Assembly (NCBI GenBank): GCA_964016885.1
Contig: OZ024756.1
Location: forward strand, 43,400,001-43,464,000
Origin: Eledone cirrhosa
Lineage: Eukaryota
Reading direction: 5' to 3'
Length of the DNA: 64,000 nucleotides
Made by a program: the position numbers and the translations under genes. Of this stretch, positions 24,891 to 41,530 are shown one piece after another. The notes beneath the pieces were generated by a model. The model searched no databases. It saw only the letters and a list, made by a program, of their open reading frames with translations, and was not told where the DNA came from. Numbering within the stretch: position 1 is the first letter of the stretch; the number at the start of each line of letters is the position of its first letter.

Positions 24891-25256
24891 TTTTTACAGA
24901 CTTTGGTGGGGATTTTTCGTTATTTGTGGCACACTGAAAATTTGTTGCATCTTCGCAATTAGGGTTATTTTTCCAGCACTGATACTCTCCATTCCATCCC
25001 TTATTTGCTGGTATTTTACAGTCAAAACCAGGTGTAACTACTCCTCTCTGAAATACTGTTTTATCTTTGTTGTAATTAAATTGTAAAACCTGAGTTCCAT
25101 TTCGTAGGAGTCTCAAGACAGTTACCACATTTAAGTCACCAGTTAGCTTACATGTTATATTTATTCTAGCTGATGATCCAACTTCAAATTCAGGTGTTAT
25201 ATTTATTCTAGCTGATGATCCATCTTCAAATTCAGGTGTTATATTTAGTGATACCC
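24891..25256 (-). CDS. Gene 2 exon: N-terminal V-like immunoglobulin domain, 366 nt, phase 1-1
   Basis: Acceptor cttccatattttatatatag|GG and donor AAA A|gtaagt. Translation VSLNITPEFEDGSSARINITPEFEVGSSARINITCKLTGDLNVVTVLRLLRNGTQVLQFNYNKDKTVFQRGVVTPGFDCKIPANKGWNGEYQCWKNNPNCEDATNFQCATNNEKSPPKSVK has a B-strand ITC and an F-strand D-x-x-x-F-x-C, Leu at the usual Trp position, and extra Cys. Confidence 0.82.
25153..25247. repeat. In-frame 42-bp tandem duplication inside the V-like exon
   Basis: tgttatatttattctagctgatgatcca(a/t)cttcaaattcagg starts at 25153 and 25195, with a partial third copy at 25237. One substitution (D/V) separates the two full copies. Confidence 0.95.
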
Positions 25257-26639
25257 CTATATATAAAATATGGAAGAGCAGAAAATGATTAGACAAAGAT
25301 TTATTTAAAAAATAACATATATAATGGCAGGTAGAGAATAACTAAGACGGAGAAGAAATCAATAATAGAAAAAGGAGAGAAAATACAGTTGTGAATGATA
25401 AAATAAGGAGAAGTTGTGAATGATAAAACTGAAGATGAAAAAGAAGAGGAGAAAGAAAAAAAATGAAAAAGAAAAAAGAAGAAAAAAGGTGAAGAAGAAG
25501 AAAGACAAAGAAGAAGAATCATGTAGACTGATGGAGAGAAACATGGAGTATGAGATGGTGTGTGTGTGACAGTAAAATGTGTATCTCCTTTGTTAGATTG
25601 GTTTCCCCATTAGAGGTAAGTCGGGTCAGGTGACCATGCCTTTCTCATATAGAACTATTTCTGGCTAGGTTTCTACAGCTGGATGCCCTTCATATTTGTA
25701 GTGTGGTGAGTACTTTTTGTTGTGACACCTACATGACCACTGTAGTTATATATACAACGTTGACTGGTAACTCTGAAGATATGTGCTAACATTTATTGCA
25801 TTTACAGAAAGTTTTTAATGTTTTATGTTGGCAATTGAAGATTCAATCATGCTAGGAATTTTGTAGGTCCTTTCCAGTTACTTTGGGGCCACGCTGTATA
25901 TTGGAAATTGGAAATGTTCAAACCTTTTAAAAGTTTCTTTCGTTCTGTGTGATCTGTAGAATTGACGTGACTTAGCGTCTAAGGAAATCCGGGGGAAAAA
26001 ACCCCTACAGAAAAATCCAGAGAGTCAGAAAAAAGGACAATCAGGCAGATAGGTAGAGTTATAGTTGACTAATATCTGACATCCCTTGGGACCGGAGGTG
26101 TAACTAGGTAAAATAGCATTTATGGCAAGCAATGAAATTCTGCCAAAACAACTGACACCCATCTTTCTTTTAGATAACCATGAAATCAGCTCAAAAATAC
26201 CAATCACGCCGTTGTGAAATAACTATATATATATATATCATAACCAGATCAATGATGATACATAGTCATCTGATCCAGAAATATTATACGGAGTAGCGAA
26301 ACAATTGTAAACGGGCATTATTATTATTATTATTATTCTCTACATTCCTTACATCAAACTAACTATGTTGACAATCTTTTAATAATGTCTTCCTTGTGAA
26401 ATTTGTGGTCTTGTTTTGCTTAACTAATGAATATTTCCAGCTCTGCGCACCTAACCTCTGCATGAACCCAGCCACCTAGCTGCTTTCTACTGCATATTGC
26501 ACATTGAGCACATGTCTTTACGCTTTGGCTTCTAACTAACTCACCAATCTTTCCTCTCATATCTCCTCTACTATCTCAATCTCTCTCTTTAAGACTGGTT
26601 ACTCTTGAACTGTGTATATGTATAATATATATATATGTA

Positions 26640-26780
26640 TAATTGCTTCTACTTTTGGCACAAGGCTAGCAATTATCACAGTGTATTACTGGTACTTTAT
26701 TTTATCGACCCCGTAAGGATGAAAGGCAAAGTTAACCTCGGCGGGATTTGAACTCAGTCCATAAAGGGACGTAACTGTGC
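26640..26780 (-). mobile_element. SINE copy (same family)
   Basis: Reverse complement of the core: ggtactttattttatcgaccccgtaaggatgaaaggcaaagttaacctcggcgggatttgaac. Confidence 0.85.
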
Positions 26781-26934
26781 TAATGGTTTCTAATTGGATA
26801 TAGAGTGTATAAGAGAAGACTGTGTTGGTATGAACATGTGATGTCTATGGAAGGTAACAACAGAGAATCTCCTGGAAGAGGTAGATCTAAGGAAACATGG
26901 CAGGAAGTAGTGATATGATAGAGATATGACCCAT

Positions 26935-27050
26935 TATGTTCAAATACCGCCAAGTGGGCTTTGCCTTTCATCCTTACGGGGTCGATAAAATAAGGTACCA
27001 GTAATGCACTGGGATAATTGCTGGCCTTGTGCCAAAAGTAAAACAAATTA
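26935..27050 (+). mobile_element. SINE copy (same family), inverted relative to 26640-26780
   Basis: gttcaaataccgcc...gcctttcatccttacggggtcgataaaataaggtaccagtaat...ccttgtgccaaaagta. Confidence 0.85.
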
Positions 27051-27289
27051 TTACTATTGATCTCAAACAGGTATTAATATACAAAGTTAGAAGACTAACA
27101 AGGGACGGAACTGTAACTGATGAAAGCTGAACCATGTATATTTGGCTGGTAGGGCTAATGTCTTACCTGGGCATATATTGAGGGGGAGAGAGAGGGAGGG
27201 ATGAGGGGGAGAGAGGCAGGGATGAGGGGGATAGAGAGGGAGAAAGCAAAATAAAAGGGGGAAACACAGTAATAATCGTTTCTGATTAA

Positions 27290-27480
27290 GGAACAAAGCC
27301 AGCAATTTTAGGGGTGAGGAAAATTTAATTAAATCGACCACAGGGCGTGACTGATACTTTATTTTATCGACCCTGTAAGGAGGAAAGGCAAAGCTAACCA
27401 CGGCTGGATTTGAACTGAGAATGTAAAGGGTTATAACTCTATGTCGCGAAGTAGGGTGCCTGTCACTCTACCGATTATTG
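27290..27480 (-). mobile_element. SINE copy, diverged
   Basis: tactttattttatcgaccctgtaaggaggaaaggcaaagctaaccacggctggatttgaac. Confidence 0.75.
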
Positions 27481-27645
27481 CTACTCCACTACCTGCGTGT
27501 AAGAGAGAAGGAAAGTGTATATAACAGAGAGAGAGAGAGAGAGAGAGAGAGAGAGGGAGAGAGAGAGAGAGAGAGGGAGGTGGAGTGTGTAAAAGACAGA
27601 GAGAGCAACATGGGGAAAATTAAATTGTCTTTTGTCTTAACTTAC

Positions 27646-27766
27646 CGCCTGAAGTGGAACGAGCCATCATCATCATCACCATAACTATTACCATAGTCCT
27701 CAACAGGTTGGGCAGAAATAAGCGCCGACTGCCCCCATCAACAGTTGTAATATAACAGCAAGACAT
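27646..27766 (-). CDS. Gene 2 first coding exon: signal/leader peptide, 121 nt, ends in phase 1
   Basis: ATG at 27766. Translation MSCCYITTVDGGSRRLFLPNLLRTMVIVMVMMMMARSTSG has a basic n-region, a hydrophobic core and a small-residue cleavage region. Donor GGC G|gtaagt splices in frame to the exon at 25256. Confidence 0.78.
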
Positions 27767-39700: not shown

Positions 39701-39726
39701 ATTTCCTTCTCTTCACAACAAGACTT
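39701..39726 (-). CDS. Gene 1 micro-exon (26 nt, phase 2-1): basic juxtamembrane cytoplasmic peptide
   Basis: tttttaattag|AAGTCTTGTTGTGAAGAGAAGGAAAT|gtaagt continues the frame as (R)SLVVKRRK, a positive-inside cluster after the TM segment. Confidence 0.7.
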
Positions 39727-39826
39727 CTAATTAAAAAACTGTAGTTATATTTATATTAAATTTATCTGAAATCATTACAGCTTGTTAGAGAAAAATATTT
39801 AAATCTGAAAGTTGTATATTACTAAC

Positions 39827-39941
39827 CTGTTGACTCCTTTAACTGGTAAATAACAAAGAACTAAATAAAAAAAGACAAGTACGTTAAATGCTATAACTCC
39901 AAGGTTGATACCAGCAGTAGTTCCACGACTTGATTCACCAG
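39827..39941 (-). CDS. Gene 1 exon: transmembrane segment, 115 nt, phase 1-2
   Basis: Acceptor ttttctatcttgatag|CT and donor AAC AG|gttagt. In frame with the Ig exon: (T)GESSRGTTAGINLGVIAFNVLVFFYLVLCYLPVKGVN, with a hydrophobic stretch of ~22 aa. Confidence 0.8.
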
Positions 39942-40399
39942 CTATCAAGATAGAAAACAGGAGCAATATGTTTGTTTCTAATATAGCCACATGATTTCAA
40001 ATTTGGTGGGAGGGTTATAGTTGATTATATGAACCCCAGTATTTCACTGGTACTTTATTTTATCAATCCCAGAAAGGTGAAAAACCAAGTTGTCCTCAAC
40101 AGGATTTAAAGTCAGAAAGTATAGAACATTTTAAATAATTTTTTATACAAGGCCAACAATATAGAGGAAGAGGAGAGTCTATTTTCAACCCCAATATTTA
40201 ACTGGTACTTTATTTTATTAATCACAGCTTTGACACTACGGACATCTCATCAGAATGTCTCAAGAACTAATCACCGGACTGATTTTATGGGGGCAAAACT
40301 AAACGGCAAGAGACCCAAGTGTAGACACCTAGCAAGATGTTTGGATAACATCCATGAGCTTAGCTGGTCTCACTTGGAGATCCAGCCAAATCAGTTGGA

Positions 40400-40740
40400 G
40401 ATACAGTGTGTGCTGGGTATTTTTGTTACGACACCTACATGACCAATTTACAGTGTGGATTGGGTACTTTTGGTCGTTGCTCCTACACGACCACTTTACA
40501 GTGTGTGCTGGAAGCTTTTTGTTGTGACACTTACATTACCACTTTACAGTGTAAGCTGAGAGCTTTTGTTGGGACACCTACATGACCACTTTACAGTGTA
40601 AGCTGAGAGCTTTTGTTGGGACACCTACATGACCACTTTACAGTGTGGGCTGGGTGCCTTTTACTAGGCACCAAAACACTCAACTGCCAGTTTGGACTGG
40701 GCGCATTTCGTTGTGACACCTATATGACAACTTTACACCA
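40400..40740. repeat. ~47-bp minisatellite, 6-7 copies, in the Ig-TM intron of gene 1
   Basis: ttttgttgggacacctacatgaccactttacagtgtaagctgagagc occurs at 40564 and again from 40611, with diverged neighbours. Confidence 0.85.
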
Positions 40741-41066
40741 TAGACGTGGGTCTAAGGTGAGACCTTAATTGTGTCAGTGATAATGAAGGTGATAGAGTGG
40801 TTACAATGATGATGATCATGAACATGGTTGTAGTGGCAGTCATAGTGATAGAAGTTAAACTGATCAAGATTATGAAAGTATAAATCCAAACACAAACACA
40901 GCAGTTCAGAAATATGTACACACTTAATCAAATATATGAATAATTATGTATTTTAAACATATACATACCTCACATGGAAACATACAATCATGCATATATA
41001 CACACATGCATGTATTGATAGAGGCAGACATGTATATAAAAATATGGAGTGATGCAGTGACATGTG

Positions 41067-41171
41067 TATATATATATATATATATATATATATATATATA
41101 TATATATATATATATATATATATATATATATATATATATATATATATATATATATATGTGTGTGTGTGTGT
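41067..41171. repeat. (TA)n(TG)n microsatellite; others at 27526-27575 (AG), 27940-27962 (GT), 34975-35027 (CT/TA), 38628-38668 and 38836-38890 (TA)
   Basis: Direct inspection of the dinucleotide runs. Confidence 0.95.
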
Positions 41172-41215
41172 ATACACACACAAATGTAATACATAAAAGA
41201 AAATGATTTGCTTAC

Positions 41216-41530
41216 TTTTATCTTTAATGTAGACTACAAAGTCAAGTTCCATTTTAAATACTGAACAGGTGATGGTTATATCGGGGTAGTCTGCAATTGT
41301 TACGTTGTAGTCAAACTGTGACTCTAATGAAACATAACAGTTGTTAGTTTTTGGAACATTCACAGTTTCTAGACTGACTGCTGTTTCGTTACTTCCATGT
41401 GTTACACTCCATTTAAACAGGACAATCTCTTCAGAATTTGGGACAAGATTTAAATGACATCTGAAGGTAGATATCTGGTTAATTTTGTGGTTCTCAGTGT
41501 CAGACATCAGATCTTTCATAAAAGATTTCA
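41216..41530 (-). CDS. Gene 1 exon: C-type (C2-like) immunoglobulin domain, 315 nt, phase 1-1
   Basis: Acceptor ttttctcttttcag|TG and donor AAA A|gtaagc. Translation [104 protein letters not shown] shows the Ig pattern C...W...(ITITC) and N-glycosylation sequons NET and NVT. Symmetric phase-1 exons are typical of Ig domains. Confidence 0.85.

Follow-up and report, generated by a model that had tools for sequence, protein, structure and literature searches.

Two tandem genes of an uncharacterised octopod V-C immunoglobulin family meet in a satellite-rich stretch of the Eledone cirrhosa genome

Six exons within a 64,000-nucleotide stretch of the Eledone cirrhosa genome (contig OZ024756.1, positions 43,400,001 to 43,464,000, here called the window) had been joined in an initial annotation into a single membrane protein with a leader, immunoglobulin (Ig) V and C domains, a transmembrane (TM) segment and a short tail. 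The question at this locus is whether these exons form one protein at all, and what kind of receptor family they come from.

Exons of two neighbouring genes

All six exons lie on the minus strand, where transcription order places the C, TM and tail exons (41530-38514) before the leader and V exons (27766-24891). As the C-TM-tail part is upstream of the leader-V part, the exons are split over two tandem genes and the joined protein would be a composite. The window is the junction of two neighbouring paralogues, holding the 3' half of one (gene A) and the 5' half of the other (gene B). The individual exons fared better than their assembly into one gene: the coordinates, the AG and GT splice signals and the agreement of phases all stand, and homology to the Octopus sinensis locus LOC115221679 supports leader, V, C and TM, but the micro-exon and last exon are without homology.

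Gene B opens with a leader exon (27646-27766, minus strand) that starts at the ATG at 27766, ends in phase 1 and matches the LOC115221679 leader at 44% (tblastn E 5e-5), its hydrophobic signal core starting at the ATG at 27694. This exon was recovered by tblastn with P0042, P0043 and P0016, and not by direct BLASTP against P0005. The V-set Ig exon (24891-25256, minus strand, 366 nt, phase 1-1; E 2e-15) encodes five cysteines, replaces the C-strand Trp by Leu and carries an in-frame 42-bp tandem duplication at 25153-25247. The five cysteines and the missing Trp had been noticed initially, and both hold and are family-wide; the motif described at the end of the domain is present too, but reads W-x3-P-x-C-x-D-x3-F-x-C, one residue longer than quoted.

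Gene A contributes a C-type Ig exon (41216-41530, minus strand, 315 nt, phase 1-1) with three cysteines and a C-strand Trp, which matches LOC115221679 (E 7e-18) and the relative P0020 (38%, E 6e-19) and groups with the LOC115221679 subfamily in a tree (support 97/95). It is followed on the same strand by a TM exon (39827-39941, 115 nt) whose start matches LOC115221679 (E 5e-6), a putative cytoplasmic micro-exon of 26 nt (39701-39726) called on splice signals and phase, and a putative last coding exon (38514-38530) called on splice signals and ending in a stop at 38514. By pyrimidine content the acceptor at 38530 ranks first and that at 39726 ranks 17th of 54 YAG sites; the donor at 39700 is one of two GTAAG within 39826-37500, and AATAAA occurs downstream at 38210 and 38002. 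Pfam returned nothing significant for any of the four homology-supported exons and Rfam had no match within 24000-42500.

The V-C introns of both genes are filled by a satellite with a 24-bp monomer. In gene A it runs from 41558 to 64000, with 734 of 859 monomers being 24 nt long, a higher-order period of 3.83 kb and no island of at least 25 nt, and stops about 30 nt short of the C acceptor; the V exon of this gene would lie beyond the window end. The gene B array (1-24731) has the same orientation and an identical top monomer, shows higher-order periods of 13.4 kb and 4.06 kb and emerges gradually from TG/TC-rich sequence some 160 nt past the V donor; the C exon would lie beyond the window start. 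The two arrays have zero 200-mers in common, and the window yielded neither a further V or C exon nor an island of sequence other than satellite.

The octopod V-C family and its fold

By sequence similarity the window exons belong to an uncharacterised octopod V-C family and are closest to LOC115221679 (XP_036366772/XP_029647744), which shares the leader, V, C, TM start and eight cysteines, although identity to the nearest relatives is only 36-40% and gene A is without the long tail carrying an inhibitory motif (ITIM). In the tree the window V joins no well-supported clade and the branches of both window exons are long. LOC115221679 and the clustered octopod proteins are automatic gene models labelled 'uncharacterized'; literature searches by locus and accession gave no match, and no paper on LOC115221679-like octopod proteins was found. 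Of 35 phmmer matches 29 carry the family domain, with 27 from Octopus and 1 from Argonauta, and a cuttlefish also has a relative (P0046). Long matches without the family domain (P0015, P0023, P0026, P0028-P0030) were dropped. Pfam misses the family almost entirely, and the matches that it gave for P0001 (PIN, AATF, DUFs) were disregarded, with zero passing stretches.

The family is clustered in three Octopus genomes, with 10 models on one 73.56-Mb contig of O. vulgaris (8 with accessions CAI9737727-738), 9 loci on one 47.89-Mb contig of O. bimaculoides and 5 loci on one 55.35-Mb contig of O. sinensis. The O. vulgaris model P0006 runs C then V, the same order as in the window. This bears out the initial description of an uncharacterised, clustered and fast-changing leader-V-C-TM family; the paralogues that it called for were found, in tandem in the relatives, and no named adhesion molecule surfaced as an orthologue.

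An Ig fold was predicted confidently, as had been expected, on a relative: the AlphaFold model of P0020 consists of a V-set and a C-type Ig domain followed by a TM helix, with a mean pLDDT of 83.7; 206 of its 303 residues score at least 90. The V domain of this model has nine strands (A, B, C, C', C'', D, E, F and G) and matches antibody, TCR and VHH V domains with Z of about 13 and an rmsd of 1.7-2.1 A over about 100 residues. The window V alone, as a single sequence, gave an uninformative pLDDT of 38.6, and a word-based search of it against longer proteins found no match.

Among 42 family V domains the B and F cysteines are each present in 41, the Asp in 42 and the Tyr in 41 (Phe in the window), and the family carries both the D-x-x-x-Y-x-C motif and the B-F cysteines of a V-set domain. 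The C-strand position is Leu in 39 of the 42 and Trp in none. Each of the five V cysteines occurs in 41-42 of the 42 domains and the three C-domain cysteines in 29, 26 and 27 of 29; the window V and C retain all eight together with the C-domain Trp. Two spare cysteines share profile columns with Cys80 and Cys171 of rabbit kappa, where the bond likewise links an extra cysteine in the V EF loop to one in the C DE region (PMC10038998), a structural parallel only, with the family bond being putative.

Tails, variation and the state of the window copies

A short tail had been taken as the form of the family, but the tail of its conserved member is about 160-200 residues long and carries ITIM motifs, the member being traceable to cuttlefish, and many other members are GPI-like. 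The motif LHYAEL occurs in both the O. sinensis and the cuttlefish tails, the latter having a second ITIM and one ITSM as well; ITIMs are absent from the O. vulgaris, Argonauta and isoform X5 models, and matches to the ITIM consensus are short. GPI-like ends, called by a hydropathy rule alone, were found in 12 proteins from 8 loci. The hydrophobic end of P0006 was excluded from this count as a (TA)n artefact. Among the TM members inspection by eye showed no activating form with an ITAM or a charged TM residue, many models being incomplete and the family under-sampled.

The TM exon of gene A is homologous at its start as annotated, but its 3' half is probably frameshifted relative to homologues. 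Its 115 nt compare with 117 nt in homologues, whose exon ends were inferred from proteins, and 2 nt have probably been lost at the T7 run 39873-39867, although this run could be an assembly error. The shifted frame scores 14.5 against 7.75, a modest result that 465 of 20,000 shuffles attain; a TAG at 39863 stands where homologues carry Trp, and the 11 codons and G from this TAG to the donor equal the distance inferred in homologues. The short tail of gene A probably arose via this deletion in an ITIM-type TM exon. CEACAM anchors arose when the TM exon acquired deletions and stop codons (PMC2832619), a precedent for losing a tail through mutation of this exon. No tail match at E<1 was found by tblastn in 24601-41600, the 3' end of gene B being outside the window.

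Both window copies, and above all gene A, might be read as dying duplicates without a functional protein, which is compatible with any functional reading and which we consider somewhat unlikely. The probable frameshift with its Trp-to-stop change and the untraced ancestral tail exons fit such decay, as do the long branches of the window V and C in the tree, the Phe at the tyrosine corner that is unique among 42 domains, the 42-bp duplication within V and the enlargement of the introns by satellite exceeding 22 kb. Decay is harder to reconcile with V and C exons that stay open across 366 and 315 nt at such low identity to their relatives, with retention of every family cysteine and the C-domain Trp, with intact splice sites and with a shifted TM frame that still encodes a hydrophobic helix and then basic residues; the open frame across 26 downstream codons (chance about 0.15) argues weakly in the same direction.

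Variation falls unevenly on the two Ig domains. Among four subfamily members, in pairs that mix species and predicted gene models, V identity is 49-62% and C identity 65-98%, although a faster V is expected for adhesion codes too. Positions in the V front face and loops are identical in 95 of 240 cases (40%) against 253 of 384 (66%) elsewhere, showing in these alignments that V variation is concentrated on the predicted C-C'-C'' face. In the runs X1-X3, which are genomic DNA contigs from a single sample with the TM exon outside the compared stretch, V-exon contigs differ by <1%, 9-10% and 13-15%, and the alignment of the 15%-divergent contig ends at 25034, the C''-D boundary. Among the differences listed between the window V and X1-X3, four of five are amino-acid replacements, each located in C, C' or the C'C'' loop, these five being a tool-selected subset with 212 further rows covering the whole stretch.

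Possible roles of the family

The organisation of the family resembles that of the CEACAMs, in which a conserved ITIM/ITSM receptor is accompanied by duplicated GPI-anchored, secreted and short-tailed relatives (PMC2832619). Of the features of the paired-receptor class (CEACAM/SIRP/CD300) the octopod family shows a putative inhibitory member, with an ITIM/ITSM consensus kept between octopus and cuttlefish, and a tandem cluster with GPI-like (by the hydropathy rule), secreted or short-tailed relatives. No sequence relationship to the CEACAMs was found, however, and no ITAM member was seen in the octopod family; the likeness is one of analogy. CEACAM N domains are not known to carry the core disulfide, whereas the octopod V domains keep its cysteines.

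We tentatively favour, at somewhat less than an even chance, the reading that the octopod V-C cluster, a gene junction of which the window spans, behaves in the manner of a diversifying receptor family of the CEACAM/SIRP type. In cephalopods the family is a candidate for variable recognition and may serve an immune or self-recognition role. Each protein would be a rod, braced by one disulfide between V and C and by a further D-E disulfide, with its variable face turned outward. This face would bind a ligand that changes, for example the surface of a microbe or parasite or a partner carried by a second cell. The ITIM member would dampen cell activation via SHP-type phosphatases, with tail-less copies (GPI-like, secreted or short-tailed) acting as non-signalling decoys or adhesion modulators, and gene A would be one such copy derived by the 2-nt deletion. 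Copies would be born and lost through unequal crossing-over, which the V-C intron satellite could promote and which would also exchange V exons among C-TM halves. A bolder form of this proposal, that octopods have a germline-variable locus of their own, a chromosomal cluster in which recombination in a gene-specific intronic satellite moves variable V exons among shared C-TM halves and TM-exon mutations repeatedly convert an ITIM receptor to decoys, with antibody-like V-C proteins and a rabbit-kappa-type disulfide, seems to us quite doubtful.

Initial annotation had likened the V domain to those of molluscan FREPs. Biomphalaria FREPs are, like the family, molluscan and multigene with a signal peptide followed by one or two IgSF domains, but they are secreted and require a fibrinogen domain after the IgSF domains (PMC7588048), whereas the family has no such domain and gene A has a TM exon. 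Membership is not supported, with a fibrinogen domain in 0 of 29 relatives scanned and none among the 25 families listed for 34 alignment members. No FREP sequence appeared among the family-search matches at E<=0.001.

We judge it unlikely that the family serves, without any immune role, as a code for cell adhesion or neural wiring like those of the Dpr/DIP or Beat proteins, with differing V faces that label cell types and bind one another. PMC10084454 describes Drosophila Beat and Dpr/DIP proteins as enlarged families of surface proteins with two Ig domains, either TM or probably GPI-anchored, a layout that the family with its many GPI-like members matches, and also an independent expansion of octopus protocadherins, while reporting no Beat orthologues outside arthropods. 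Some V domains of O. vulgaris and O. sinensis are near-identical (P0008/P0037), as such a code would have it. The octopod family however includes an ITIM-tailed member, and this conserved ITIM/ITSM tail, the near-identical C exons beneath differing V exons and the multiple V-exon variants within a single sample look more like birth-and-death turnover than like a code that stays stable. Beat and Dpr/DIP proteins were absent from the 60 PDB sequences and the top structural matches listed.

A parallel with the Hydractinia Alr genes, also drawn initially, underlies the reading of the cluster as a polymorphic self-recognition locus where allele-matched V faces bind and the ITIM member signals 'self', which we regard as very doubtful. 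Contacts at which such recognition might be seen include haemocytes against tissue and sucker against skin. According to PMC9546547, Alr proteins are like the family clustered, divergent, V-first and single-pass, mostly lack the C-strand Trp, and have ITIMs together with additional disulfides within the sheet and between domains. The amino-acid changes seen in the listed V differences would suit allelic recognition, but these five sites are a tool-selected subset and in a single sample alleles are indistinguishable from paralogues. Defining Alr sequence features are absent: PMC9546547 gives Alr V domains no B-F cysteines and describes I-set domains and an Fn3-like membrane-proximal domain, whereas the family V keeps these cysteines and a single C-type domain with a short stalk leads directly to the TM helix, with no Fn3-like domain, and membership is not supported.

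Misassembly at the satellite arrays, scrambling the order of one six-exon gene, would account for there being exactly one leader, V, C and TM in the window and long satellites are difficult to assemble, but it is highly improbable given the 16 kb of non-satellite DNA between C and V, the distinct periods and unshared 200-mers of the arrays, the tandem copies normal in relatives and the multiple V-exon variants in X1-X3.

No account of a cluster of diversified Ig receptors in cephalopods turned up in the literature search. The present family, scattered in databases as 'uncharacterized' models, is a concrete and testable candidate for variable recognition in octopus immunity or self/non-self discrimination, and the window has probably captured a tail-loss event within it. 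If its role is neural it would be another cephalopod cell-surface code alongside the protocadherins, and a germline-variable locus, if true, would confer individual-specific immune or self-recognition on cephalopods. As a CEACAM/SIRP-type family it would represent an independent molluscan origin of the CEACAM-type design, with an ITIM receptor amid tail-less copies.

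Two half-genes and a satellite-filled intron

A single 24-bp satellite makes up approximately 74% of the window and forms two arrays separated by 17 kb. The minus strand carries all six exon segments proposed in the initial annotation, and their splice sites are canonical and their phases fit. Their assignment to one gene did not hold, as reading from 64000 to 1 gives satellite, C, TM, micro-exon, stop exon, intergenic DNA, leader, V and satellite, which puts C-TM-stop ahead of leader-V and makes two genes. C, TM and the two tail segments make up the 3' half of one gene (gene A), and leader and V make up the 5' half of its neighbour (gene B). 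Gene A contributes a C exon (41530-41216), a TM exon (39941-39827), a putative micro-exon of 26 nt and a putative stop exon (38530-38514), all on the minus strand, with no homology support found in relatives for the last two. Following 11 kb of LINE-containing intergenic DNA are the minus-strand leader (27766-27646) and V (25256-24891) exons of gene B. The V of gene A and the C of gene B lie outside the window, past arrays of at least 22 and at least 24 kb, and a profile search of the window, using profiles that contained its own exons, detected no further V or C exons. The leader-V-C-TM composite originally drawn, untenable as one gene, still represents the family fairly because leader, V, C and TM start match LOC115221679, the nearest O. 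sinensis relative, in the expected order. The V exon also carries a 42-bp tandem duplication (25153-25247) adding 14 residues in frame, which repeats the A-A' strand region, adds an N-glycosylation sequon and was not observed in relatives.

As the gene B array starts about 160 nt past the V donor and the gene A array stops about 30 nt short of the C acceptor, the satellite forms the V-C intron of both genes. The arrays have the same monomer in the same orientation, different higher-order periods (3.83 kb in 41558-64000; 13.4 and 4.06 kb in 1-24731) and no 200-mers in common. Next to the V donor the monomer seems to emerge gradually from TG/TC microsatellite-like sequence, which suggests that it originated within this V-C intron.

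The near-full-length LINE (29657-33413, minus strand) encodes an endonuclease and a reverse transcriptase (ORF 32400-29965, 811 aa; Pfam RVT_1, E 2e-34), its 3' end running on in another frame (30118-29636). Its G+C of 45-49%, against approximately 30% in the surroundings, points to a probably fairly young insertion. Both of its flanks (29338-29656 and 33414-33497) match a single segment immediately 3' of gene A (37252-37939) at 80-90%, so that it inserted into a second copy of that segment, either a local duplication or a dispersed repeat. Other elements include an A+T-rich inverted repeat, possibly a foldback element or MITE (36137-36358 / 36890-37111; 222-bp arms, 99% identity, 531-bp spacer), a 47-bp minisatellite repeated about 5.5 times within the C-TM intron (40402-40737), a similar-looking repeat with high read depth in the leader-V intron (25610-25760) and a short interspersed repeat (26640-26780, 26920-27050, 27340-27490, 28430-28610, 35420-35590, 37590-37700) with very high depth in the three sequencing runs X1-X3.

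A clustered family with a predicted V-set fold

Pfam returned nothing significant for the exons, and a language-model search gave leads only: for V it pointed to V-set and to unnamed clusters from molluscs, and for C to C1/C2-set. A phmmer search of 1.84 billion representatives with the V exon gave 35 matches, 29 of them bearing the family domain; the other six, long proteins lacking it, were set aside. Of these 29, 27 are from Octopus vulgaris, O. sinensis or O. bimaculoides and one is from Argonauta hians, and all named relatives are annotated 'uncharacterized', 'hypothetical' or 'Ig-like domain-containing'. Using the O. sinensis protein as query brought up a cuttlefish relative (E 5e-46). 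Members cluster within species, taking identical contig size to mean the same contig: 10 O. vulgaris models on one 73.56-Mb contig (eight within CAI9737727-738), nine O. bimaculoides loci on one of 47.89 Mb and five O. sinensis loci on one of 55.35 Mb, with three other models away from the main contigs. Several O. vulgaris models contain repeated and fused V-C units, one ordered C then V as in the window. P0001 (CAI9737738.1), P0002 and P0037, O. vulgaris proteins with repeated V-C units, up to five V domains and in some cases Thr-rich stalks, are probably separate tandem genes joined by the gene predictor, genuine multi-unit proteins being the lesser possibility. In trees of 42 V and 29 C domains (each at least 88 residues, most duplicate isoforms excluded) the window C exon joins the LOC115221679 subfamily on a long branch (support 97/95) and the V exon is unplaced; best identities of the window exons to relatives are 36% and 40%.

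The window V folded alone with AlphaFold gave a poor prediction, and the Ig fold expected from the initial annotation was predicted on a relative, P0020 (CAI9716300.1 of O. vulgaris). A 34-row alignment headed by P0020 and including both window exons predicted a pair of beta-sandwiches plus a helix at 244-273 (mean pLDDT 83.7), the first domain having C' and C'' strands and resembling nanobody, antibody and TCR V domains (Z ~13, rmsd 1.7-2.1 A). Foldseek matched Fab chains across both domains, which are set at a different inter-domain angle. The five V cysteines and missing C-strand Trp noted previously are real and common to the whole family, the cysteines being kept in 41-42 of 42 V domains and the Trp position being Leu in 39 of 42; three C-domain cysteines are kept in 26-29 of 29. 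Two V cysteines form the B-F pair, two lie on the adjacent D and E strands and the fifth is in the EF loop. The last, together with the spare C-domain cysteine, lines up with the additional cysteines found in rabbit kappa light chains. These chains, the best PDB hits by sequence (E 4e-4), use them for a Cys80-Cys171 bond linking V and C (PMC10038998). We infer D-E and V-C disulfides in the family; the partial cuttlefish V has the EF cysteine, with no D-E pair visible.

Tails and a probable frame change in gene A

The tail of LOC115221679 runs to about 198 residues and contains an ITIM, LHYAEL, that is skipped in one isoform. The cuttlefish protein has the TM, poly-proline run and LHYAEL motif in common with it, and in addition a second ITIM and one ITSM. 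Twelve proteins from eight loci have a hydrophobic end and no tail, GPI-signal-like by a hydropathy rule, and many other members are soluble or incomplete models. Neither an ITAM nor a charged TM residue was seen among the family's TM members. P0020, encoded on a separate 225.7-Mb contig, resembles LOC115221679 and has its own short acidic tail, apparently a second case of tail loss.

In the gene A TM exon 23 residues track the ITIM-type TM before diverging, and the next frame reads I*FFVI against IWFFVI in homologues; this shifted frame scores 14.5 against 7.75, and 465 of 20000 shuffles reach its score. From the TAG to the donor there are 11 codons plus a G; each of the six homologue sequences, from four genes, has at the corresponding point a residue with G-starting codons, and two Octopus genes lose resemblance at exactly that point. 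On this count the exon has 115 nt, against 117 inferred for homologues. A true 2-nt deletion is reasonably probable, a homopolymer assembly error being possible. Translated as assembled, the predicted protein retains its hydrophobic helix and acquires a tail of about 18 residues, basic and lacking tyrosine. In the CEACAM family, GPI anchors have evolved repeatedly when deletions or stop codons hit a TM exon linked to ITIMs (PMC2832619). Both window copies may be non-functional, a reading less likely than not and independent of those below, although their Ig exons are still open, with eight of eight cysteines kept at about 60% divergence.

Variation and proposed role

Among four subfamily members identity is 49-62% in V and 65-98% in C; for an O. 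sinensis/O. vulgaris pair the figures are 62% and 98%. Between more distant members the two domains have diverged to about the same degree. Identity over BC, C, C', C'' and FG is 40%, against 66% in the remainder of V, with a minimum of 17-19% at C'C'' and C''. X1-X3 are genomic contigs from a single sample and include both exon and intron sequence. Those that overlap at the V exon diverge from the window by <1%, 9-10% and 13-15%, indicating several recent paralogues or alleles, with depth uninformative on copy number. In all three runs the alignment of the 15% contig ends at 25034, the C''-D boundary, so that its C to C'' portion stays unaligned. Of five listed V differences, a selected subset, four change the amino acid, all within C, C' or C'C''.

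As the most likely reading, we tentatively propose that the window genes belong to a diversifying receptor cluster with a variable V face, an ITIM inhibitor and tail-less copies. A neural or adhesion code is a less likely reading; no match to the Beat and Dpr families (PMC10084454) surfaced among the PDB sequences and top structural matches listed. Alr-like self-recognition is more improbable still, and identity with Hydractinia Alr was ruled out, since the family keeps the B-F cysteines and has no Fn3-like domain, in contrast with Alr as described in PMC9546547. A single misassembled gene is highly improbable. Nor is the family a FREP, the group whose Ig domains were likened to it initially: FREPs are defined with a fibrinogen domain (PMC7588048), and none was found in the 29 relatives.

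The octopod expansion is real, apparently undescribed so far and of a receptor-cluster kind already known. No description was found in the literature searched as far as it was accessible, including the available parts of PMC11431876, PMC13428168, PMC11252417 and PMC13282606; subscription papers and further supplements may mention the family. A term search found no immunoglobulin mention in PMC9068888, PMC13218726 or PMC9795677, and none of six locus ids occurs in three supplements of PMC9712504.

For the proposed receptor cluster the analysis shows the layout of the genes, the fold, the motifs and how variation is distributed, and we infer ligand, cell type, signalling and satellite role. Braced V-C rods would present the variable face, and the conserved member would inhibit via its ITIMs. 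Tail-less copies, gene A included, may act as decoys or adhesion modulators. The family would work like a CEACAM-type cluster but is not a member of it. Unequal crossing-over, possibly inside the intronic satellite, would renew the gene set and could exchange V exons.
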